From positions 1 through 37,230 of the forward strand of contig CALKRZ010000173.1 of the NCBI GenBank assembly GCA_937989765.1: a stretch of DNA of 37,230 nucleotides, read 5' to 3'. This DNA comes from an uncultured Clostridia bacterium. GTDB lineage: Bacteria; Bacillota; Clostridia; Lachnospirales; CALKRZ01. A program made the position numbers and the translations under genes. The notes below the pieces were generated by a model. That model was not told the DNA's origin and searched no databases. It worked only from the letters and a program-made list of their open reading frames with translations. Within the stretch, counting starts at the first letter, position 1, and each line of letters starts with the position of its first letter. Below, piece after piece: positions 1,147 through 37,230 of the stretch.

Positions 1147-1165
1147 TCTATAAAGAAGCTGATAG

Positions 1166-1331
1166 TTGGAAAGTATGTAGTGGGAAGGCAAATATATAAA
1201 TCTGGAAACAACGGCAATAAAAGAGCGCGTCCAAAACTTCCAACTATACTTTCCCCTTACACAAGCGCGATTTTGCCGTTGTTGGAAGACTTATATATTT
1301 GCCTGACCACGGACCCTTTCTGACCACGGAA
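1166..1331 (+). repeat. long-hairpin intergenic repeat family, copy 1 (MITE-like / structured RNA candidate)
   Basis: Alignable along its length with 12835-13001, 23193-23346 and the reverse complement of 20800-20950. Arms are GGCAAATATATAAATCTGGAAACAACGGCAA ... TTGCCGTTGTTGGAAGACTTATATATTTGCC. It starts 20 nt after the mutase stop codon. Confidence 0.85.
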
Positions 1332-1348
1332 ATTTTGCAACATCCAAT

Positions 1349-4501: not shown

Positions 4502-6649
4502 ATGCTAATGACAGACTGGATTGTCCCAAATAGAGATTATATATTTTTTATCATAGCTGTACTAGTTTGTGTAGTGATCCAAGAGATCTGTATGAGAAGA
4601 TATATCATCCAGTTAGCAAAAAAGCTTCAGCAAAACATAGCAAGTCTGCCTTTGCTTCGATGGAGTGGCATAGTGGTGTATGGGCTGATCGCAACTACTT
4701 TGATCGTAGGAGGGTTTGCAGTTAACCATGCCACTACCATGGAGAGTATGCGCATGGAGAGTATCCTTGCAGGTACAGCCAGGATTCTGAGTTATGAACT
4801 CATGGAGCAGGGACATGCAAGCCTTCCTATAGACGTAGATTCCGATGATCCTTTATACATAGCTGTGGTAAACACCATAGAGCATTGGCTTCAAATTAAT
4901 CCAAGTATACAGAGCATATATACAATGCGAAAGCGTTCGGATGGTAGCAATGTTTTTTTAGTAGATGGTGCAGTGGACTACAATGGAAATGGTAAAATCG
5001 ATGAGGATATAGAAGGTCGCACGCCACCAGGCACTGTATATAAATTATTCATAAAGGAAATGGAGCAGGCATTTAATGGGAAAGAGGGCTTAGAGAAGGC
5101 ACCTACCACGGATCAATGGGGAACTAGTATTAGTTACTATGTACCCATCTATACAAAAGAGGGGCAGCAAGAGGGGATCGTGGGGCTAGATTATGATGGA
5201 ACACAGTGGCTACAGGTGATCCGTAGCTCGAGACAAAAAATGGTCATTTTCTTTGTCATTATTCTCTTCTTGTTAGATATCATCTATGGGGTGATCATCT
5301 TAGTAACCATTGACGGAGAAAAAAATAAGTATCACCGACAGGAAATCTGGTATAAAGCATATTACGATGATCTTACAGGATTGCCGAACAGAAGTCTACT
5401 GAACCAAAAGCTTACAGAAGCACTAGAAAAAGCTGCAAAATCAGGGGAAAGGGTGGGGGTTCTTCTTTTTGACCTAGATCGTTTTAAGGTGATCAATGAC
5501 AGTATTGGACATAGGATAGGAGATCGACTACTACAAAATGTGGCGCAGAGGTTGCAGCTATGTATAAAGGATCAGGTGCTGCTATGCCATTTTGGAGGAG
5601 ATGCCTTTGTCGTAATGTTTGGTCAAGTGAATCAAGAAGACAGGATTCGTAGTGCGGCAGAAGAGATTATGAAAGCATTAAGACCCTCTTTTTGGATAGA
5701 TGAACATGAATTATTTATTACTGCTAGTATAGGTATATCTATATTTCCGCAAGATGGGGACAATGCCCAAACCCTCTTGAAAAATGCAGAGACTGCTGTG
5801 TATTCGGCAAAAGAAAATGGGCGAGATACGGTTGAATATTATAAAATGAGTATGAATGAAAAGTCTTTGATGCGTTTGCAGTTAGAAAACAAACTTCGGA
5901 GCGCACTTGAAAAGAAAGAGTTTATTGTATATTATCAGCCTCAGATAGACTGTAAAACAGCAGAAATTGTCAGTGCTGAAGCATTGATTCGATGGCAAGA
6001 TCCGATAGAAGGATTGATTTCGCCAGGCGAATTTATTCCTTTGGCAGAAGAAACTGGATTGATCGTACCTATGGGGGAATGGATGCTATATGCGGTATGC
6101 GAACAAATCAACCAGTGGCAGAGACAAGGATATCCACCTATACGAATCGATGTAAATCTATCCGCGAGACAGTTTAGACAACACGATATCGTAAATACGA
6201 TCAAGCAAGTACTCCACGATACAGGTGTCTATGCTAGTTCTTTAGGCGTAGAGATTACAGAAAGTATTGCTATGAAAAATGAAGAGTTAACCTATACCAC
6301 TTTAAAGCAGCTAGAGGAAATGGGTGTACACATTTCTATTGATGATTTTGGGACAGGGTATTCTTCTCTGAGCTATTTGAAGAAATATCCCTTACACACA
6401 TTAAAGATTGATCAGTCCTTTGTACGAGATCTGGTCGTAGACTCCAGTGATGCAGCGATTGCCAGTGCGATTATATTGATGGCACATGGTCTTCATTTGG
6501 AGGTGGTGGCAGAAGGGGTGGAGACCCTAGAACAAATTGAATTTTTGCGGGAAAACCAGTGTGATCGACTGCAGGGATTTATATTCAGCAGGCCAGTACC
6601 ACCAGAAGAATTCCAAAGATTACTACCACGCCAAAAAGAGATTTCTTGA
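4502..6649 (+). CDS. membrane sensor protein: TM - extracytoplasmic Cache-like domain - TM - degenerate GGDEF (GGDAF) - EAL; probable c-di-GMP phosphodiesterase
   Basis: Two hydrophobic segments flank an ~190-aa loop. The GGDEF-domain core reads GGDAF (5594-5608). The EAL domain motifs are intact: EALIRW (5978-), DDFGTGYSSLSYL, KIDQSFV, EGVET, QGF. Confidence 0.88.
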   Translation: MLMTDWIVPNRDYIFFIIAVLVCVVIQEICMRRYIIQLAKKLQQNIASLPLLRWSGIVVYGLIATTLIVGGFAVNHATTMESMRMESILAGTARILSYELMEQGHASLPIDVDSDDPLYIAVVNTIEHWLQINPSIQSIYTMRKRSDGSNVFLVDGAVDYNGNGKIDEDIEGRTPPGTVYKLFIKEMEQAFNGKEGLEKAPTTDQWGTSISYYVPIYTKEGQQEGIVGLDYDGTQWLQVIRSSRQKMVIFFVIILFLLDIIYGVIILVTIDGEKNKYHRQEIWYKAYYDDLTGLPNRSLLNQKLTEALEKAAKSGERVGVLLFDLDRFKVINDSIGHRIGDRLLQNVAQRLQLCIKDQVLLCHFGGDAFVVMFGQVNQEDRIRSAAEEIMKALRPSFWIDEHELFITASIGISIFPQDGDNAQTLLKNAETAVYSAKENGRDTVEYYKMSMNEKSLMRLQLENKLRSALEKKEFIVYYQPQIDCKTAEIVSAEALIRWQDPIEGLISPGEFIPLAEETGLIVPMGEWMLYAVCEQINQWQRQGYPPIRIDVNLSARQFRQHDIVNTIKQVLHDTGVYASSLGVEITESIAMKNEELTYTTLKQLEEMGVHISIDDFGTGYSSLSYLKKYPLHTLKIDQSFVRDLVVDSSDAAIASAIILMAHGLHLEVVAEGVETLEQIEFLRENQCDRLQGFIFSRPVPPEEFQRLLPRQKEIS

Positions 6650-7763: not shown

Positions 7764-8189
7764 GTGAAGAGATGGATCTTATTATGCCTCGTAAGCTGTA
7801 TATTTCTAACGATCGGATGCAGTAAAAAACCTGGGGACATTACCTATCAACAACTAGACTATACCTTGCCAAATCAAGAAGAAATACCAAGTACTTTGCG
7901 GCAGCAGATCCAATTGGCCAAAGCATATCCATTTACCATGGAATACAAACAAGGAGAAGATCTGTTTTTAGCCGTAGGCTATGGACAGAAGCCTACAGGA
8001 GGATATAGTGTACAAGTAGTAGCGATAGGAGAGGCTCAGGGGCGAGTACAAGTTGTTACAAAGCTTATAGCGCCTAGTCCAGATGAATATGTCACCACCG
8101 TCATCACATACCCGATCATCGTCATTCAGATCAAAGATCCAGGAGTGCCTATAGAATTCAAAACATCCATACCAACGCTAAAAAAATAA
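7764..8189 (+). CDS. PrcB_C-domain lipoprotein (protease complex subunit PrcB family)
   Basis: GTG start. The signal peptide carries a lipobox, LTIGC. The motif GQKPTGGYSVQVV is typical of the PrcB C-terminal domain. Confidence 0.7.
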   Translation: MKRWILLCLVSCIFLTIGCSKKPGDITYQQLDYTLPNQEEIPSTLRQQIQLAKAYPFTMEYKQGEDLFLAVGYGQKPTGGYSVQVVAIGEAQGRVQVVTKLIAPSPDEYVTTVITYPIIVIQIKDPGVPIEFKTSIPTLKK

Positions 8190-8225
8190 GGATCTCTGCC
8201 TTACCACATACTTTTGCAGAGATCC
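8190..8225. repeat. hairpin carrying a solo terminal fragment of the long-hairpin repeat family
   Basis: GGATCTCTGC-CTTACCACATACTTTT-GCAGAGATCC. The 19 nt TGCCTTACCACATACTTTT (8197-8215) are identical to the 3' terminus of copy 2 (12975-12993). Both also share GGATCTC / GAGATCC flanks. Confidence 0.6.
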
Positions 8226-8236
8226 AAAAATAAAAC

Positions 8237-8262
8237 GATTGGCTGAGGCTAATCTTTTTTTT
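8237..8262 (+). terminator. rho-independent terminator of the lipoprotein gene
   Basis: GATTGGC-TGAG-GCTAATC: a 7-bp stem including one G-U pair, followed by T8. Confidence 0.65.
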
Positions 8263-12803: not shown

Positions 12804-12833
12804 AAAACAACCGAATTCTCGGTTGTTTTTTTT
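12804..12833 (+). terminator. rho-independent terminator of the GntR gene
   Basis: AAAACAACCGAATTCTCGGTTGTTTTTTTT. Confidence 0.75.
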
Positions 12834-12834
12834 G

Positions 12835-13001
12835 GATCTCAGAAAAAGTATGTGGTGATAAGGCAAATATATAAATCTGGAAACAACTGCAACAAAGGAG
12901 CGCGTCCCAAATTTCAACTAAACTGACCCTTTGCACAAGCGCGATTTTGCAGTTGTTGTAAGATTTATATATTTGCCTTACCACATACTTTTTCTGAGAT
13001 C
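12835..13001 (+). repeat. long-hairpin intergenic repeat family, copy 2 (best-paired copy)
   Basis: The outer 23 bp pair perfectly (GGATCTCAGAAAAAGTATGTGGT with ACCACATACTTTTTCTGAGATCC). Inward there are a further 19 bp, a 3x3 internal loop, 11 bp, and a GC-rich inner helix around a ~34-nt apical region. A T-run (13003-13009) follows. Confidence 0.9.
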
Positions 13002-13094
13002 CGTTTTTTTGTACCCATTTTTAGAGGATAAAACTTCATTTATTGGAACAAAATATAGGGTATTAAGTTATCTATGCATAAAAGGAGTGAGGAT

Positions 13095-13304
13095 ATGATC
13101 TATAATTTTATAAGACAGGTAGCAGATATTTATAGTGTGTGGCTTATGGCATTGACAGTAGCGATTGGCATCTTTATTCTTTTGGCAGACAGCCATCAGT
13201 TAAACGACAAAAATGAAAGAGATCGTAAGATCGCTAGGGTGCTAGGATGGGTTTATACCGCAGGAGGCTTACTACTCTTTATAGGTGTAAAGTTTGTAGT
13301 ATAG
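13095..13304 (+). CDS. small two-TM membrane protein of unknown function, immediately upstream of the gerA-type operon
   Basis: Track ORF 13074..13304. The likely start is the ATG at 13095, preceded by AAAGGAG. Two hydrophobic segments are present. No family is recognised. Confidence 0.5.
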   Translation: MIYNFIRQVADIYSVWLMALTVAIGIFILLADSHQLNDKNERDRKIARVLGWVYTAGGLLLFIGVKFVV

Positions 13305-18220: not shown

Positions 18221-19678
18221 TTGAACCGAGCCAAACACCAAAAAACACCGTTGTTTACTGCTCTTAAAGAGCATATGGAAAAGGATGTAGTGCCTTTTCA
18301 TGTGCCTGGTCATAAATATGGAAGGGGAAATCCAGAACTTTTGGATTTCTTTGGACAAAATGTAATGAAAGCCGATGTCAATGGGATGGAAGGCTTAGAT
18401 AATGCCGCCAATCCCATCTCCGTCATCAAAGAAGCAGAAGAGCTGATGGCAGAAGCCTTCCATGCAGATCATGCCTTCTTTCTAGTCAATGGAACCACCT
18501 CAGGTATACAAACTATGATCATGAGTGCATGTCGCCCAGGAGAGCAGATCATTATCCCTAGGAATGCTCATAAGTCTACTATTGGGGGCATTATCCTATC
18601 TGGAGCCGTCCCCATCTATGTACCCTCAGAGATCAATGAAAACTTAGGCGTCGCTATGGGAGTATCAGCCCAAGTGATCAAAGATGCGATCAAAGCCAAT
18701 GACTTTGCCAAAGCTGTATTTGTAGTCAATCCCACATATTATGGGGCAGTTTCTGATCTCAAGTCTATCGTACGCACAGCCCATCGCAATGGCACGGCAG
18801 TATTGGTGGATGAGGCACATGGAGCCCATATGCGATTTCATGACGACTTCCCACTGACAGCGATGGAGGTAGGGGCAGATATGAGTGCCTGCAGTAACCA
18901 CAAGACGGGCGGGTCTATGACCCAAAGCTCGGCACTTCTGCTTCGAGGCAATCTTATTTCCAAGGCAAAGGTAAAACAGACCCTGAACCTTACCTTTACG
19001 ACCAGTGCTTCCTATATCCTCATGGCGTCACTAGATACATCCAGAAAAGTTTTGGCACTCCAAGGGGAAGAACTTTTAGGAGAGACACTAGAACTGTGCC
19101 GCTATGCAAGGACAGAACTCAACAATATTGAGGGAATCTACGCATTAGGAAAAGAATTAATCGGCACCCCGGGATGCTATGACTTTGATGAAACTAAGCT
19201 CACAATTCATGTTCGTAGATTAGGGATTACAGGCTTTGAAATGGAAAGAATCTTGCGGAGGCAATACAATATCCAGATCGAGATGTCGGATATCTATAAT
19301 ATAATGGCGATCGTCAGCCTAGGAGATCGCAGGGAGGATATAGACAGGCTCATTCATGCGATACGAGATATTGCAGAAAAAAGAGGAATACAAGAGATGA
19401 AAAATGTCATTCTCATTCCTAAAGTGCCAGATCTCATCGTATCCCCAAGGGATGCCTTCTATGGACACAAGCGGGTAGTCGCATTAGAAGAAAGTAAAGG
19501 AGAGATCTGTGCGGAGATGATTATGGCGTATCCACCCGGTATTCCGATCATCTGTCCAGGAGAGCGGATCAGTCAAGATGTCATAGACTATGTGAAGATA
19601 TTAAAAGAGGAACAATGTCAAATGCAGGGAACAGCAGACCCTTATGTAAATAATATTCGGGTACTGGGTGTTCGATAA
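18221..19678 (+). CDS. Orn/Lys/Arg decarboxylase family PLP enzyme (B. subtilis SpeA-like arginine decarboxylase)
   Basis: TTG start preceded by AGGAGG. It is colinear with my recollection of B. subtilis SpeA (TPLFTALKEH, HVPGHKYG, IIIPRNAHKS, VDEAHGAH, PLP-lysine region SNHKTGGSMTQSS). Confidence 0.88.
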   Translation: MNRAKHQKTPLFTALKEHMEKDVVPFHVPGHKYGRGNPELLDFFGQNVMKADVNGMEGLDNAANPISVIKEAEELMAEAFHADHAFFLVNGTTSGIQTMIMSACRPGEQIIIPRNAHKSTIGGIILSGAVPIYVPSEINENLGVAMGVSAQVIKDAIKANDFAKAVFVVNPTYYGAVSDLKSIVRTAHRNGTAVLVDEAHGAHMRFHDDFPLTAMEVGADMSACSNHKTGGSMTQSSALLLRGNLISKAKVKQTLNLTFTTSASYILMASLDTSRKVLALQGEELLGETLELCRYARTELNNIEGIYALGKELIGTPGCYDFDETKLTIHVRRLGITGFEMERILRRQYNIQIEMSDIYNIMAIVSLGDRREDIDRLIHAIRDIAEKRGIQEMKNVILIPKVPDLIVSPRDAFYGHKRVVALEESKGEICAEMIMAYPPGIPIICPGERISQDVIDYVKILKEEQCQMQGTADPYVNNIRVLGVR

Positions 19679-19844: not shown

Positions 19845-20786
19845 TTGCGGTATAAGAAGATATGTGTCATTACTTCCATGATCATAGCACTGATGAGTGT
19901 TACCACTGCATACATAGTGGATCGTGCTGTTCCAGAAGTAGTACAAGCAGCAATCTATACATGGGGCTCCAAAGGAGCTTCTGTAAGACAGATTCAGACA
20001 AGGCTTCGGGATTGGGGATTTTATAAAGGAAGTGTGGACGGTTCTTATGGATATCAAACATGGGATGCTGTAAGGCGGTTTCAACAGCGCCATGGTCTCA
20101 AGGCAGATGGGATCACCGGTAGAACAACTTTAGAAAAATTAGGACTACCCACAGGAGCCGCACAAGCAGCTGGAGGAGGGGGTGGCGTAGTAGCTACTCA
20201 GACAAAATATACTTGGGGTTCTAAGGGGGAAGGAGTCAAGGAGATACAAAGAAGGCTTCGAGACTGGGGTTATCTCAAAGGCGCAATAGATGGCTCCTAT
20301 GGATATCAAACCTGGTCTGCTGTCAAGCGTTTTCAGTCTCGTCACGGGCTCACTGCGGATGGAGTAGCAGGAAGAGGGACGTTAGAAAAACTAGGTATAC
20401 CAGTGCGTACGGCGGCAGCCAATACGGATGCTGCTCGTAATCTCCATGTGCTAGCAGCGGCAATTCATGGAGAAGCGAGGGGAGAACCTTATTTGGGGCA
20501 AGTAGCGGTGGGTGCGGTGGTTATGAATCGCGCTAGGCATCCCTCTTTTCCTAATACCATAGCAGGGGTCGTATATCAACCCGGCGCCTTTGATGCGGTC
20601 AAGGATGGACAGATCAATCTAACTCCGGGTGAAAGTTCCCGAAAAGCAGCAAGAGATGCCCTAAATGGATGGGATCCCACGGATGGTTCGATCTATTATT
20701 GGAATCCTGCTACAGCCACCAGTCGTTGGATTTGGTCCGTACCCATCACCAAACAAATCGGAAGACACGTATTTGGAAAAAAATAA
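19845..20786 (+). CDS. sleB: spore cortex-lytic enzyme SleB paralog 1 (two PG_binding_1 domains + Hydrolase_2 domain)
   Basis: TTG start preceded by GGAGGG. The PG-binding module is duplicated (YTWGSKG..IQ.RLRDWG..KG..DGSYGYQTW.AV.RFQ.RHGL.ADG). The C-terminal domain motifs AAAIHGEARGEPYLGQVAVGAVVMNR...HPSFPNTIAGVVYQPGAFDAV are typical of SleB/CwlJ. Confidence 0.9.
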   Translation: MRYKKICVITSMIIALMSVTTAYIVDRAVPEVVQAAIYTWGSKGASVRQIQTRLRDWGFYKGSVDGSYGYQTWDAVRRFQQRHGLKADGITGRTTLEKLGLPTGAAQAAGGGGGVVATQTKYTWGSKGEGVKEIQRRLRDWGYLKGAIDGSYGYQTWSAVKRFQSRHGLTADGVAGRGTLEKLGIPVRTAAANTDAARNLHVLAAAIHGEARGEPYLGQVAVGAVVMNRARHPSFPNTIAGVVYQPGAFDAVKDGQINLTPGESSRKAARDALNGWDPTDGSIYYWNPATATSRWIWSVPITKQIGRHVFGKK

Positions 20787-20799
20787 ATTCCGAGTTATC

Positions 20800-20950
20800 A
20801 AAAAGCTTGTGGTAAGGCAAATATATAAATCTTCCAACAACTGCAAAATCACGCTTGTGCAAAGGGGAATTTTAGTTGTAATCGGGGACGCGCTCTTTTG
20901 TTGCAGTTGTTTACAGATTTATATATTTGCCTTACCACTATATACTTTTA
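20800..20950 (-). repeat. long-hairpin intergenic repeat family, copy 3 (inverted orientation)
   Basis: Its reverse complement aligns with copies 1, 2 and 4. It fills the sleB1-sleB2 spacer, starting 13 nt after the sleB1 stop and ending 39 nt before the sleB2 start. Confidence 0.88.
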
Positions 20951-20989
20951 CAACGATCCATAACTTCTAAAAAGGTAGGAGAGATGTGT

Positions 20990-21700
20990 ATGAAACATAG
21001 ACGACTAAGCATTATTCTAACGAGTGTGATCATGATAGTAGCCGTGGGTTTTGCAGGTTTTGTCCACAGTATTACACCTAGAGCCATAGAGGTCTCTACG
21101 TATACATGGGGATCAAAAGGAGAGACTGTGCGCAAGATTCAGCAAAAGTTAAAGCAGTGGGGATATATGGAAGAATCAGCGGATGGCACATACGGCTACA
21201 AGACATGGGATGCAGTGAAGAAGTTTCAAAGAAAAAATAACCTAAAGGCAGATGGGGTAGCAGGCACAAAAACCTTGGAAAAGCTAGGTATTCAAGCAAC
21301 TAAAGCAGCGGCTGAGCAAGGACAAGGGGGTGCTGCTAAGGCGGGCAACAAGGATGTGCGTCTTTTGGCAGCGGCAATCCATGGAGAAGGTAGAGGGGAA
21401 ATCTACTTGGGACAAGTAGCGATTGGGGCTGTGGTTATGAATCGTACCAGACACCCTTCATTTCCTAATACCATAGCAGGGGTGGTGTATCAACCGGGTG
21501 CTTTTGATGCAGTCAAGGATGGACAGATCAATCTAGAGCCAGGAGAGTCCTCCCTAAAGGCAGCGAGGGATGCCATGAATGGATGGGATCCTACGGATGG
21601 AGCCATCTACTACTGGAATCCAGTCACAGCCAAAAGCAAATGGATTTGGTCAGTACCCATTTCAAAAAAAATAGGCAAGCATGTATTTGGTAAAAAATAA
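20990..21700 (+). CDS. sleB: spore cortex-lytic enzyme SleB paralog 2 (one PG_binding_1 domain + Hydrolase_2 domain)
   Basis: Track ORF 20927..21700 begins inside the repeat. Start refined to the ATG at 20990 (MKHRRLSIILTSV), preceded by AGGAGAG with a 6-nt spacer. The C-terminal domain is near-identical at protein level to paralog 1. Confidence 0.9.
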   Translation: MKHRRLSIILTSVIMIVAVGFAGFVHSITPRAIEVSTYTWGSKGETVRKIQQKLKQWGYMEESADGTYGYKTWDAVKKFQRKNNLKADGVAGTKTLEKLGIQATKAAAEQGQGGAAKAGNKDVRLLAAAIHGEGRGEIYLGQVAIGAVVMNRTRHPSFPNTIAGVVYQPGAFDAVKDGQINLEPGESSLKAARDAMNGWDPTDGAIYYWNPVTAKSKWIWSVPISKKIGKHVFGKK

Positions 21701-21718: not shown

Positions 21719-23143
21719 GTGAAGAAAAAAGATAATCAACTGCTCAGATGGAAAACGAGGCTATCCCGAGGGCATATGTATAGTGTAGTGGTAACTATTT
21801 TGGCAATAACACTAGGATTTGGGATGTATCAATACAAACAAAAGCTGAATTATAAACAATTTCTCCAAAATCAATTTCAAGAAGCATTTTATGAAACAGC
21901 TACGTATGTAAATAATGTGGACAACAACTTGGCAAAGGTAAGATTGGCTAGAAAGCCTCCACAATGCGCCCCCTATTTTGCAGAGTTGTGGAAGCAGGCA
22001 TCCTCTGCACAAGAAAATCTAGGGAGGATGCCATATAATCACTCTGCGGTGAGTAAAACGCTAAAATTTTTATCCCAAGTCAGTGATTATTCCTATGCCA
22101 TGATGCATAAATCCGTGGAAGGGAAAGAACTCACAGACAAGGACTGGGAAAAATTAGATCAAATCCGAAATTATGCTAGAAAGCTGAGTTTTGAACTGAA
22201 CAAAGTACGAGAAGAAGTAGATGATGGAAATAGGATCGCTTGGGGTCAGATTGAAAAAGAAGGGGAAAAAGCCTTAGAAAAAGCCAAAGAGGGAACAGAA
22301 GGACGGCATATCGTAGGCTCTCTCACGGAAGTAAATAAGCAGTTCCAAGATTATCCTGTGCTCCTCTATGATGGACCCTTTTCCGATCATATTGAGCGGA
22401 TGGAGCCAAGGATGGTCAGGGGCAAAGAACGAATCACGAAAGAGCAAGGCGCAGAGATTGTCAAAAACTTTTTAGGAAATGATCAAATACAAACTGTACG
22501 CCTCGTGGGGCAAACAGATACCAAACAGCGGCATATCATCCCTGTATACACCTATGAAATCCTATTGGCGAATCAAAAGGAACCTACACTCGCCATAGAT
22601 ATTACGCAAGAAGGTGGATTACCCATTTGGATGTTGAACTATACCACAAGACCGAGTACAGATAAAGAAATATCGCTAGAAGACGCGCGAAAAAAAGCAG
22701 AAGACTTCTTAGCCAGAAATAAGTATCCAGATATGAAACCTAGTTATTATGAGAAGGTAGATGGAGTAGCCGTGATCAACTTTGCACCAGAACAGAACAA
22801 TGTGATCATGTATCCTGACTTGATCAAAGTAAAAGTCGCGATGGATCAAGGAGAGATCATAGGTTTCGAGGCGAGAGGCTACATTATGATGCATCATAAA
22901 CGAAACCTACCCCAAATCAAACTAACAGAAGCAGAAGCGAGGCAAGAGCTGTCTCCTAACTTTACGATCACCAAGGTGAACAAGGCAGTCATTCCCCTAG
23001 AATCCAAAAGAGAAGTGCTCTGCTATGAGTTCAAAGGGCGACATGAAGACAGCGAGTTTATCATATACATCAATGCCGAAAGCGGCAAACAAGAAAAAAT
23101 CCTCCAACTCATCACCACAAAAAATGCAGTACTCACCCAATAA
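21719..23143 (+). CDS. ypeB: germination protein YpeB (PepSY-domain partner of SleB)
   Basis: Track ORF 21710..23143. The GTG at 21719 is better spaced from GGGAG. There is an N-terminal TM segment and C-terminal PepSY-type repeats. The sleB-ypeB gene order is canonical. Confidence 0.88.
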   Translation: MKKKDNQLLRWKTRLSRGHMYSVVVTILAITLGFGMYQYKQKLNYKQFLQNQFQEAFYETATYVNNVDNNLAKVRLARKPPQCAPYFAELWKQASSAQENLGRMPYNHSAVSKTLKFLSQVSDYSYAMMHKSVEGKELTDKDWEKLDQIRNYARKLSFELNKVREEVDDGNRIAWGQIEKEGEKALEKAKEGTEGRHIVGSLTEVNKQFQDYPVLLYDGPFSDHIERMEPRMVRGKERITKEQGAEIVKNFLGNDQIQTVRLVGQTDTKQRHIIPVYTYEILLANQKEPTLAIDITQEGGLPIWMLNYTTRPSTDKEISLEDARKKAEDFLARNKYPDMKPSYYEKVDGVAVINFAPEQNNVIMYPDLIKVKVAMDQGEIIGFEARGYIMMHHKRNLPQIKLTEAEARQELSPNFTITKVNKAVIPLESKREVLCYEFKGRHEDSEFIIYINAESGKQEKILQLITTKNAVLTQ

Positions 23144-23169
23144 GACTAGATCCCTAGTCTTATTTTTTT
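23141..23169 (+). terminator. rho-independent terminator of ypeB
   Basis: TAAGACTAG-ATCC-CTAGTCTTA followed by TTTTTTT. Confidence 0.8.
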
Positions 23170-23192
23170 GGTCTTTTAAAGAAGAGATTTGT

Positions 23193-23346
23193 GAAAAAGT
23201 ATCTAGTGGAAAGGAAAATATATAAATCTGGAAACAACTGCAACAAAAGAGCGCCTCCCAGATTTCAAATAAACTTCCCCCTTGCACAAGCGCGATTTTG
23301 CAGTTGTTGGAAGATTTATATATTTTCCTTTCCACAGGTTTTTTCC
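23193..23346 (+). repeat. long-hairpin intergenic repeat family, copy 4
   Basis: Arms are GTGGAAAGGAAAATATATAAATCTGGAAACAACTGCAA ... TTGCAGTTGTTGGAAGATTTATATATTTTCCTTTCCAC. A T-run follows. Confidence 0.88.
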
Positions 23347-23355
23347 AAAAAGGTA

Positions 23356-35104: not shown

Positions 35105-37230
35105 ATGTCGATGAAAAGCAAGGTAGCTGCTATAATACTGCTGCTTGGCTGCTTCATGTGGACAAAAACCGTACTTGCGAATGAACAGTGGAATACAGTC
35201 TTTCAGTGGAAAACGACAGTAGATTCTATTATTGTGGCACAACCCTATGTAGATGAAGAGGAAAACATCTATATATATACAGATCAAAACCAGATCCAGT
35301 CCTTTGACAAGGAAGGAAATCGCAGGTGGAGCTATGGAAGCCCACATCACAAAGTGACAAAGCCGTATTTTTATAAAGAAGGGATGATCGTAGTCACGCA
35401 GCAGGGATCTGTATATGTACTAGACTCACAGGGGCAACAACGACTGTTGATAGACAAACTGCGACCAGAGTCTACATCACCATACATCTTCAAGGATATT
35501 TTTTTGTGGGGTAGGCAAAACTGTGTATATATCCTCTATAGATATGAGGGACAAGCTTACCTAGACTATATCCATCCAGAAATAGGTAGGCTAAGAGATA
35601 CGGTACAGGTAGGAGATATTAAAGTAGGAACTGCGCCCACGATGGACGATCAAGGACATTCCTATATCTTATATAGGAAAGGATCGGATAGTTATAAAAC
35701 CGTATATCTGCAAAAAAGACAAGAGCTGATAGAACTTCCCCTATGGGATATAGCAGTGGTGCAACATATTGGAGGAACAGAAGAAAGTCTAGAAATGACT
35801 GTCGCAGGAGAAAGAGTATATATGTCTCTGACAAAACACGGGGTATATGGCTATCCCACAAACCGTACTCCGGAAGTTCTGCCGCAGCAAGCGATTCCTT
35901 TGTGGCGTCTACAGGGAGATCCAAGTATTGCGGTTACCATACAAAAAGCAGATAGCAGGGGATACCTATATATGATGGATAATCAGTACTGCCCTGATCC
36001 TTCAAGGCCAGGCTCTACTCAGAAGAATGCTATTCGGGTTATCGATATACGTAATCCTCATGAGATGAGAGATATAAAGGATATCAATGCGATCCGTACT
36101 TCAGAAAGAGGTACAGTATTGCACAGCAAATATCGAGGTGGATATGGAACTACAGGATGTGTACAGGTAGATCATCTAGATAGAATTTATTATACTTTTG
36201 TTTCCTCAGACAAAACGCAGCATATCCAGATTGACAGGTTTGAGGAAGATACAAAGTGCATAGAGCAAAAAGCCAGAGTAATATTTCAAGATCCTATGCA
36301 AAATCCTTCCAGACTATACTTTTATGTCACACCCAAGGGAGAAATCATAGGCGCAGATGAAAAAAACGGATTATGGAAAGCCCTATTAACAAAACCGAGC
36401 TCTGTCAATATCCATAAACCCCCCAAACAAAATACTATTTTTTTTACATGGGAAGAAGTGCATAACTTTATTACAGGTCAAAAAGCCCAGAACTATGAAG
36501 TGCAGCGGTATAAAGCGGGACAAGTAGATCAGGTATGGGAAATACAGGACAATGATTTTACGGATATCCCTTTAGAAGAAGGGTTTTATACCTATAGGGT
36601 GACCCCACTGTGGGGTGTAAATAGAGGAGTGGGTGGGGAAGTATCCATCATGTATGTGCCGTATACACCACCTAGTATACATGTAGAAGGGCTGCCGCAG
36701 CAAAGCATGACCAATCAAGACGTGGTACTGCATATACAAAGTACCTATGGTACGTATAGTGCGATCTTAAATGAGGCGCCCTATATTTCTGGTACAGTCA
36801 TTTCCAAAGAAGGGCAGTATCAATTAACCATACAGACCATAGACCAAGAAGGAGATGTATATGGAGAAGCTGTGAAATACAGCTTTGGTATTGATAAAAC
36901 ACCGCCTATACTATCTATAGAGCAGGAATATAAGAAACAAGAGGGAGTACAAGGCCAAGTACATATACACGTATATACCAATGATCCACAAGCAGTGATC
37001 TTTATCAATGAAGGAGTCTATGAGCACCCATATATACTGGAGGGAACAGGTCAGTATATATTGGAGATCATGGCGGTAGATCCTGCTGGAAATCAATGCA
37101 AACAAATCGTAGAAATTACGCTGGAAGCAGAAATCTTGCCAGAAGAACCAGAAGAACCAGAAGAAAAAATACCACCAACACAGCCACAAGAACCAAAAGA
37201 AGAAACGCCACCAATACAACCAGAAGAACC
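35105..37230 (+). CDS. large secreted surface protein (3' end outside window): signal peptide, PQQ-like beta-propeller-type region, Fn3-like and Ig-like modules, Pro/Glu-rich linker
   Basis: Not in the ORF track because there is no stop before the window end. I translated the frame codon by codon from the ATG at 35105 (RBS GGAGGG) to 37230 and found no stop codon (708 codons). The signal peptide is MSMKSKVAAIILLLGCFMWTKTVLA. Motifs present: GSVYVLDSQGQ-type repeats, and AVDPAGN, an Ig-like surface-domain motif. The window ends in PEEPEEPEEKIPPTQPQEPKEETPPIQPEEP. Confidence 0.8.
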   Translation, partial: MSMKSKVAAIILLLGCFMWTKTVLANEQWNTVFQWKTTVDSIIVAQPYVDEEENIYIYTDQNQIQSFDKEGNRRWSYGSPHHKVTKPYFYKEGMIVVTQQGSVYVLDSQGQQRLLIDKLRPESTSPYIFKDIFLWGRQNCVYILYRYEGQAYLDYIHPEIGRLRDTVQVGDIKVGTAPTMDDQGHSYILYRKGSDSYKTVYLQKRQELIELPLWDIAVVQHIGGTEESLEMTVAGERVYMSLTKHGVYGYPTNRTPEVLPQQAIPLWRLQGDPSIAVTIQKADSRGYLYMMDNQYCPDPSRPGSTQKNAIRVIDIRNPHEMRDIKDINAIRTSERGTVLHSKYRGGYGTTGCVQVDHLDRIYYTFVSSDKTQHIQIDRFEEDTKCIEQKARVIFQDPMQNPSRLYFYVTPKGEIIGADEKNGLWKALLTKPSSVNIHKPPKQNTIFFTWEEVHNFITGQKAQNYEVQRYKAGQVDQVWEIQDNDFTDIPLEEGFYTYRVTPLWGVNRGVGGEVSIMYVPYTPPSIHVEGLPQQSMTNQDVVLHIQSTYGTYSAILNEAPYISGTVISKEGQYQLTIQTIDQEGDVYGEAVKYSFGIDKTPPILSIEQEYKKQEGVQGQVHIHVYTNDPQAVIFINEGVYEHPYILEGTGQYILEIMAVDPAGNQCKQIVEITLEAEILPEEPEEPEEKIPPTQPQEPKEETPPIQPEE

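Follow-up and report, generated by a model that had tools for sequence, protein, structure and literature searches.

Small interspersed repeat families are common in bacteria, including Clostridium, Enterococcus, Bacillus and Streptococcus (PMC2267715, PMC3184786, PMC10969869, PMC3446304). Known MITEs (miniature transposable elements with inverted repeats) have terminal inverted repeats (TIRs), target-site duplications (TSDs), intergenic sites and stable RNA hairpins, with compensatory changes described in bcr1 (PMC10969869, PMC3184786, PMC3446304). We describe here a repeat family found on CALKRZ010000173.1, a contig of an uncultured Clostridia bacterium from a draft or metagenome-type assembly (NCBI/ENA), the complete 37,230 nt of which were analyzed and are called the window below. 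The window contains an imperfect palindrome in four full copies (c1 to c4, 165-186 nt) and one copy with an internal deletion. These probably form a lineage-specific MITE family, whose members are non-autonomous and mobilized in trans. A first-pass annotation of the contig had already suggested that the family, if mobile, is non-autonomous and MITE-like; such an element is now the best reading of the data, strengthened by 8-bp repeats flanking several copies, by empty orthologous sites and by the internally deleted copy.

Among the closest described systems, bcr1, a MITE-like element of bcr Group A in the Bacillus cereus group, is also an intergenic repeat of a Firmicute, of about 155 nt, with traits of a mobile element and short flanking direct repeats, often located in untranslated regions (UTRs) or operon spacers, and with a stable predicted RNA structure and compensatory changes (PMC3184786, PMC3446304). 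The element of the window differs by being one continuous hairpin of ~60 bp with 8-bp repeats, and no sequence similarity between the two is known. The Correia (NEMIS) elements of Neisseria are MITEs of ~100-160 bp present at high density, about one in every 10 kb, and pairing of their TIRs produces a long hairpin in mRNA that is cleaved by RNase III (PMC10969869); on the other hand, they duplicate TA, carry IHF sites and promoters, belong to Proteobacteria and have no sequence relationship to the element described here. RUP and SPRITE of Streptococcus pneumoniae are small interspersed repeats of a Firmicute (~105 nt) with stable hairpins, and SPRITE mimics a Rho-independent terminator and sits at gene 3' ends (PMC3049150, PMC3184786). 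Both are shorter and of other sequences, RUP duplicates TA, and our element is terminator-like only where a duplicated T-tract follows it (c2). EFAR of Enterococcus faecalis, another Firmicute repeat reportedly described by Venditti and colleagues in 2007, is said to consist of palindromic miniature insertion sequences of ~170 bp, with variants including very short ones, whose insertion sites are terminator-like stem-loops and whose transcription occurs together with that of the flanking genes. Reportedly, EFAR also forms L-shaped double stem-loops and replaces most of the target hairpin, with no 8-bp duplication. By this description, and indirectly by the scan of GTDB genomes reported below, the present element would differ from EFAR; no relevant paper on EFAR, or on repeats of Epulopiscium or Defluviitalea, emerged from a literature search.

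Four full copies and one deleted copy of a palindromic element

The element is made of two arms of ~65 nt around an asymmetric apex of ~35 nt, for a total of ~170 nt. The best preserved copy, c2 (12834-13002, plus strand), has a perfect 22-bp TIR (GGATCTCAGAAAAAGTATGTGG / CCACATACTTTTTCTGAGATCC) and forms a hairpin of ~60 bp. The full copy c1 (1160-1345, plus strand) has decayed tips and lies between the stop codon of a phosphoglucomutase gene (1146) and a bidirectional terminator, while c4 (23185-23352, plus strand), also full with decayed tips, is without recognizable flanking duplication and carries two compensated stem changes. Copy c3 (20791-20959, minus strand) is inverted and occupies the spacer between the tandem sleB paralogues of a sleB-sleB-ypeB operon. 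The deleted copy (8190-8225, plus strand) retains the tips GGATCTCTG...CAGAGATCC and 18 nt of the 3' arm, forming a 10-bp hairpin. From the alignment of all ends, the intact tip is GGATCTC(A/T)G(A/C)AAAAGTATGTGG. Both ends of c2 (22 bp) and both ends of the deleted copy carry this tip in perfect form, and it is also implied by the 3' ends of two predicted peptides, P0001 and P0128 (see below); the tips of c1, of c4 and of the 3' end of c3 are degenerate.

Using c2 as a 160-nt reference, a repeat finder recovered three others with 88-90% identity, two of them direct (near 1161 and near 23186) and one inverted (20800-20963), and an nhmmer profile built from the four copies found each of them at E = 1e-54 to 1e-56 and, weakly, the deleted copy at 8192-8225. 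Therefore, the four full copies and the fragment were located essentially where the first-pass annotation had placed them. The copies are 85-92% identical to each other, and 38-nt arms are 84-92% self-complementary according to the repeat finder. A 23-nt core matched seven times on the two strands of the window and never in 100 shuffles, which excludes chance.

The 3' end of c1 (...TTTTGCAACATCC at 1345) lies 14 nt beyond the end first assigned to it, as 17 nt of the 3' arm are duplicated in tandem (1303-1319 and 1320-1336; CTGACCACGGACCCTTT / CTGACCACGGAAATTTT). This duplication had hidden the true end of the element, and its removal restores the alignment. The deletion junction of the deleted copy shows a TGC microhomology. 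Deletions and duplications of this sort within long palindromes would be the expected product of replication slippage. We also considered an element-encoded small protein and rejected it, since its reading frame arises from the palindrome itself and is open on both strands; the open reading frames (ORFs) of the element are palindrome-derived read-throughs without a ribosome binding site (RBS).

Flanking repeats and empty sites suggest insertion of a mobile element

With the boundaries of the element fixed by the GGATC...GATCC tips, 8-bp A/T-rich direct repeats were found at three of the five copies, including both copies with fully intact tips (c2 and the deleted copy). At the deleted copy, the left repeat (8182-8189, AAAAATAA), which includes the stop codon of a prcB-like gene, is identical at 8/8 positions to the right one (8226-8233, AAAAATAA). 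At c2, the left flank (12826-12833, TTTTTTTT) is the U-tract of the terminator that follows gntR (stem 12804-12829), and the right flank (13003-13010, GTTTTTTT), a candidate TSD, matches it at 7/8, or at 8/8 with a 1-nt shift. The left repeat of c3 (20783-20790, ATAAATTC) includes the stop codon of sleB1, and its right repeat (20960-20967, ATAACTTC) matches at 7/8. In the window, A/T-rich 8-mers this far apart match at 7/8 or better with a background frequency of 0.0087.

Every copy is intergenic, 1-50 nt past a stop codon, as previously noted, and adjoins an A/T tract at a gene 3' end or terminator. Terminators stand beside the four non-operonic copies: c1 ends 3 nt short of the one at 1349-1376, the deleted copy sits between a stop codon and the one at 8237-8254, c2 sits within the U-tract of the gntR terminator, and c4 starts 21 nt past the ypeB terminator stem (23139-23164). 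T-runs had been proposed to follow both c2 and c4. The one after c2 is clean, as c2 duplicated the T-tract of the terminator and consequently a T-run comes directly after its own hairpin; that of c4 turned out to belong to its own 3' arm.

We also compared the syntenic loci of six relatives (L005-L010), which come from other genera with ~60% protein identity and in which the gene order ispE-gntR-(small gene)-gerA...spoIIR-sleB-sleB-ypeB-ddl-murI is kept. nhmmer with the --max option found no element in these six loci. The sleB-sleB spacer measures 204 nt in the window versus 14-19 nt in the relatives, and the end of sleB1 aligns with those of the relatives at the DNA level as far as the stop codon. 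When c3 and one flanking 8-mer are taken out, what remains is the stop codon, 26 nt with the RBS AGGTAGGAG, and then the ATG. After gntR and ypeB, relatives have only short ordinary terminator hairpins.

The element, smaller than ~500 bp and without real coding capacity, has TIRs and is present in multiple dispersed copies (five in the window). Together with the 8-bp repeats, the divergence of the copies, the empty orthologous sites and the decay products, these features fit a MITE. In the mechanism that we propose, a transposase encoded elsewhere in the genome would recognize the TIRs GGATCTC(A/T)G(A/C)AAAAGTATGTGG and insert the element where gene 3' ends and Rho-independent terminators offer A/T-rich tracts, with duplication of 8 bp of the target. 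A transcribed element would then fold into a long double-stranded hairpin, and its cutting by RNase III, or the terminator that it may add, would be side effects and not the reason for its existence, by analogy with Correia and SPRITE.

Several observations weigh against this reading. Copies c1 and c4 have degenerate tips and no flanking duplication, and the three duplications that were found are low-complexity A/T sequence. The empty sites come from a comparison with other genera, which makes recent mobility no more than a possibility. As the first-pass annotation had stated, the window contains no transposase gene; no autonomous partner insertion sequence was seen, and mobilization in trans is therefore a step that we infer. 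Moreover, the compensated changes of the stems (described below) sit 27-55 nt from the tips, so that binding of the TIRs by a transposase does not explain them; some constraint or process at the level of the hairpin therefore also acts.

Left flanks of three copies share a further feature. In c1 (1150-1159), c4 (23175-23184) and c3 (20964-20976, minus strand, in element orientation), a T-rich stretch is followed by A(A)AGAAG located 0-4 nt from the 5' tip. This common flank could represent a target-site preference or could be part of a longer variant of the element.

Possible relationship with IS6/IS26

The tips of the element are suggestive, at most, of an origin from an IS6/IS26-like insertion sequence. 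The IS6/IS26 family has the TIR consensus GGTTCTGTTGCAAA, with conserved G1, G2, G7 (and G10), and 8-bp TSDs as a hallmark; A/T-rich targets of IS26 are documented, as for example TTATTAAT and TGTTTTTT, and two IS6-derived MITEs are present in ISfinder (PMC6807381, PMC7986276). These IS6/IS26 MITEs (MITEBth2 and MITEHarch3) and IS1216/IS257 duplicate 8 bp of A/T-rich target, as our element may do at three of its five copies, and have TIRs starting with GG. The tips GGATCGTTGTAAA (c3), GGATCTCTGCAAA (deleted copy) and GGATGTTGCAAA (c1) match GGTTCTGTTGCAAA at 11/14 positions with one or two gaps, and GG is found at the tip in five of nine aligned ends. The consensus of the nine ends, GGATcTcTGAAAAAGT, agrees with the verified left inverted repeat of IS1216 at 12/18 positions, ungapped.

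Against this link, the window contains 12 matches to GGTTCTGTTGCAAA at no more than three edits, compared with ~10 expected; three of the 12 lie at element tips in the correct orientation. Members of the IS6 family transpose via cointegrates, which is an awkward route to simple MITE insertions. In addition, not all of the element tips have the conserved G7 and G10, the IS6 MITEs described so far measure 227 and 336 bp versus ~170 nt here, and no IS6-type transposase was seen in the 37-kb window. A wider reading, which we find unlikely as a whole, is that a MITE of the IS6/IS26 type, or of another DDE type, has proliferated to about one copy per 8 kb, with a hairpin either required for mobility, as a folded single-strand intermediate, or exploited by the host as an RNase III or terminator module, and with compensatory changes that would be real structural selection. 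Should it be so, the family would be a rare high-copy IS6-derived MITE, raising the question of how a cointegrate-forming transposase gives simple insertions. If the IS6/IS26 link held, the family would also be a natural system for studying how a transposase handles minimal substrates. ISL3, which has GGCTCTT tips and an 8-bp TSD, was considered as another origin; the literature gave nothing usable on this point.

Pairing between the arms is preserved

As an imperfect palindrome, the element folds into a hairpin of ~50-60 bp. The pairing of the c2 arms over more than 50 bp, first noticed by eye of the annotating model, is borne out by folding, which gives a ~60-bp hairpin with -87.7 kcal/mol as RNA (z = -13.8) and -55.2 kcal/mol as single-stranded DNA (z = -14.5); c1 folds at -62 kcal/mol (z = -7). 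In the consensus fold of 48 pairs, 96% of the stem cells of the four copies are paired, with 7 G.U cells and 7 broken cells, and c1 has five unpaired stem cells. The apex is more variable than the stems, as had been claimed, with 13/36 variable columns (36%) versus 17/96 (18%). Three double-sided changes preserve pairing, exactly those listed previously: one in c1 (U-A to G-C) and two in c4 (U-A to A-U and C-G to A-U).

We asked how often such changes would arise if the 20 observed stem substitutions were placed at random. At least three compensated pairs were obtained at P ~0.001, and this value, together with the lower variability of the stems, indicates that something preserves pairing. A shuffle control for covariation gave 13/500, which is at its ceiling, as four sequences allow no better than ~8-13/500. 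The two strands fold equally well (-86.2 versus -87.5, -62.6 versus -59.0 and -62.8 versus -62.2 kcal/mol), which speaks against a selection specific to RNA, and the one-sided stem changes (7 G.U versus 4 A.C) carry no strand-specific signature. With only four copies and no strand asymmetry, selection on RNA structure is thus inseparable from correction of the palindrome at the DNA level. Indeed, template-switch (quasipalindrome) correction can give compensatory-looking changes in DNA palindromes without selection. Pairing is possibly kept by selection on the RNA hairpin, by a need for the DNA hairpin in mobility, or by selection-free template-switch correction of quasipalindromes.

A 3x3 internal loop, GGA opposite GGA, is present in all copies, as the first-pass annotation had observed. 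Its proposed role as a recognition motif based on tandem G-A pairs is not established: the copies descend from one ancestor, and the middle base is not conserved, being G.G in c1 and c4, G.U in c2 and U.G in c3.

These results bear on the alternative that the element is primarily a functional structured RNA module, acting as a 3'-UTR stabilizer, an RNase III site or an auxiliary terminator. Selection acting on the RNA hairpin would maintain it, and duplication or recombination, not transposition, would have spread it. Such a module would account for the three compensated double substitutions among 20 and for the almost complete pairing of stems that vary half as often as the apex, as well as for the middle G.G of the internal loop, twice turned into a wobble (G.U, U.G). 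All copies lie in or beside transcribed 3' regions, a T-run follows c2, and effects at the RNA level are described for bcr1, Correia and SPRITE (PMC3184786, PMC10969869). On the contrary, the covariation signal comes from four sequences with a shuffle control at its ceiling, and neither the folding of the two strands nor the G.U and A.C counts distinguish RNA from DNA. Changes that look compensatory can, as is well established, arise in DNA palindromes by template switching without any selection. The positions and the state of the copies also fit poorly with an RNA function: c3 is antisense to the transcription of its operon, c2 and c4 lie past terminators, where little RNA is expected, c1 is decaying, with its unpaired cells and its duplication, and the copy behind P0001 appears to have two uncompensated changes. 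Finally, flanking 8-bp repeats and an internally deleted remnant are traits of transposons, not of RNA genes. Altogether, an RNA module is an unlikely explanation of the family.

The hairpin could also be the substrate of a different kind of mobility, in which a REPIN-like or otherwise hairpin-dependent element is moved as single-stranded DNA by an HUH enzyme of the RAYT or IS200/IS605 type. The whole element is a hairpin with a stable single-stranded DNA fold, a hairpin used as substrate would explain why changes deep in the arms keep pairing, and the copies are adjacent to terminators, like REPs and REPINs (PMC3733652). However, REP units are 20-40 nt long, G+C-rich and have GTAG/CGTC heads (PMC3733652), in contrast with ~170 nt, an A/T-rich composition and GGATC tips here. 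HUH insertion gives no 8-bp duplications, which are found at three of the five copies, and the window has no RAYT or TnpA gene. We consider this explanation very improbable, and membership of the element in REP/REPIN was rejected on its size, A/T-rich composition, GGATC tips and 8-bp flanking repeats. A MITE mobilized in trans by a transposase is the most probable reading.

Distribution of the family

Genes of the contig (sipL, yabG, the gerA operon, spoIIR, sleB and ypeB) identify the host as a spore-forming member of the Clostridia, a bacterium of gut or environmental origin from a poorly sampled group. Its closest YpeB homologues, from Defluviitalea phaphyphila, metagenome-assembled genomes of Epulopiscium and other assemblies, are 61-63% identical, and its nearest relatives are Defluviitalea and Epulopiscium-like bacteria, with ~60% protein identity.

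We searched for the family outside the window. The exact 23-nt core had no true match in 185,579 GTDB species representatives or in JGI metagenomes, each giving one chance match within a Tepidiaquacella coding sequence. Three patterns searched in IMG/VR viral contigs returned nothing, or one chance match, and blastn of the whole element and of a 49-nt end against plasmid and phage collections gave no match. Rfam had 0 matches for the element at gathering thresholds, in line with the first-pass annotation, which recognized no Rfam family; below threshold (E-value mode), results were generic long-hairpin noise, the best being a plant miRNA-precursor hairpin with 43.8 bits versus a threshold of 211. 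No CRISPR, tRNA, rRNA or riboswitch was detected in the window.

In protein databases, the minus-frame peptide of the element matched P0001, P0128 and P0127, the latter being the window's own, while the plus-frame peptide had no match; P0125 and P0126, also found by the peptide search, are unrelated repetitive proteins and were discarded. P0001 and P0128 correspond to the two frames of the element, and both end with ...HTFSEI, corresponding to CATACTTTTTCTGAGATC. These spurious ORFs show that at least two further copies of the family are present elsewhere in the same assembly, on other contigs. P0128 itself is a real small membrane protein (MKKNEKKALF...) extended upstream through one entire element, which is an annotation artefact. 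Gene callers thus emit spurious ORFs from the element or extend real genes upstream through it (P0001, P0127 and P0128).

L002, a Logan contig of run ERR9287621 that encodes identical proteins and comes from the same species, begins within the deleted copy and stops within c2, its ends in the element being positions 1-27 and 4620-4655. The only other sample of the species therefore has the element at the same two sites and, as the run is independent, confirms two junctions between unique flank and element. L002 breaks in element sequence at both ends, in keeping with a repeat dispersed in the genome, and the repeat therefore fragments short-read (de Bruijn) assemblies. This breakage, and the draft or metagenome-type nature of the assembly, are what could make the repeats an artefact of assembly or chimerism. 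Since the copies differ at 8-15% of positions with private indels, each in a unique and syntenic gene context, and since ERR9287621 reproduces the junctions at two sites, such an artefact is hardly conceivable. The family is a real and previously uncatalogued repeat. It looks like a new member of a familiar class of elements, the MITEs, and not like a new kind of biology; a lineage that is almost unsampled thereby gains a repeat family, and the current understanding of MITEs is left unchanged.

Possible consequences and neighboring genes

By their positions, c1 and the deleted copy would form part of 3' UTRs. Copy c3 plausibly puts a duplex of ~60 bp into the sleB-sleB-ypeB transcript, where it may be a substrate of RNase III by analogy with what was shown for Correia (PMC10969869), and the hairpin of c2 with its T-run might serve as a back-up terminator. 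Should RNase III cleave these long hairpins, or transcription end at them, the expression of sporulation and germination genes could change.

The 3' arm also contains an outward sigma-70-like match, TTTGCA-16-TATATT (9/12), in c2 (12946-12973), c3 (20847-20820, minus strand) and c4 (23297-23324). Promoter-like matches were not enriched over shuffles, and this one may mean nothing. An integron attC site, an imperfect palindrome with R''/R' core sites that follows the ORF of each mobile cassette and has an intI in its vicinity, was considered as an identity of the repeat and rejected because the neighboring genes are core genes syntenic with relatives, not cassettes; the window has no integrase.

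The tandem sleB-type hydrolase paralogues around c3 (19845-20786 and 20991-21700, PG_binding_1 and Hydrolase_2 domains) are 80% identical over their C-terminal 300 nt, and a sleB pair is directly upstream of ypeB in all relatives examined. Between spoIIR and sleB, the window has an Orn/Lys/Arg decarboxylase gene (18221-19678); at the same spot, Defluviitalea has a Sigma70_r4_2 (sigma-70 region 4) protein and a DUF4367 protein, and in GCA_900198705 the spot is empty. The block is otherwise conserved, and this position within it is variable.

A small ORF between c2 and gerA (13096-13304, 69 aa from the ATG at 13096), easily missed in annotation, encodes a two-helix membrane protein resembling the 69-aa PF28179 (CLC_0170) protein found at the same position in one of the relatives (L007). 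At the other end of the window, a long ORF (35112-37230) runs off the contig, with 36-nt tandem repeats rich in Pro/Glu codons at 37125-37230, and probably encodes a large surface protein comparable to the TIG-domain or SLH proteins that relatives have at that position.

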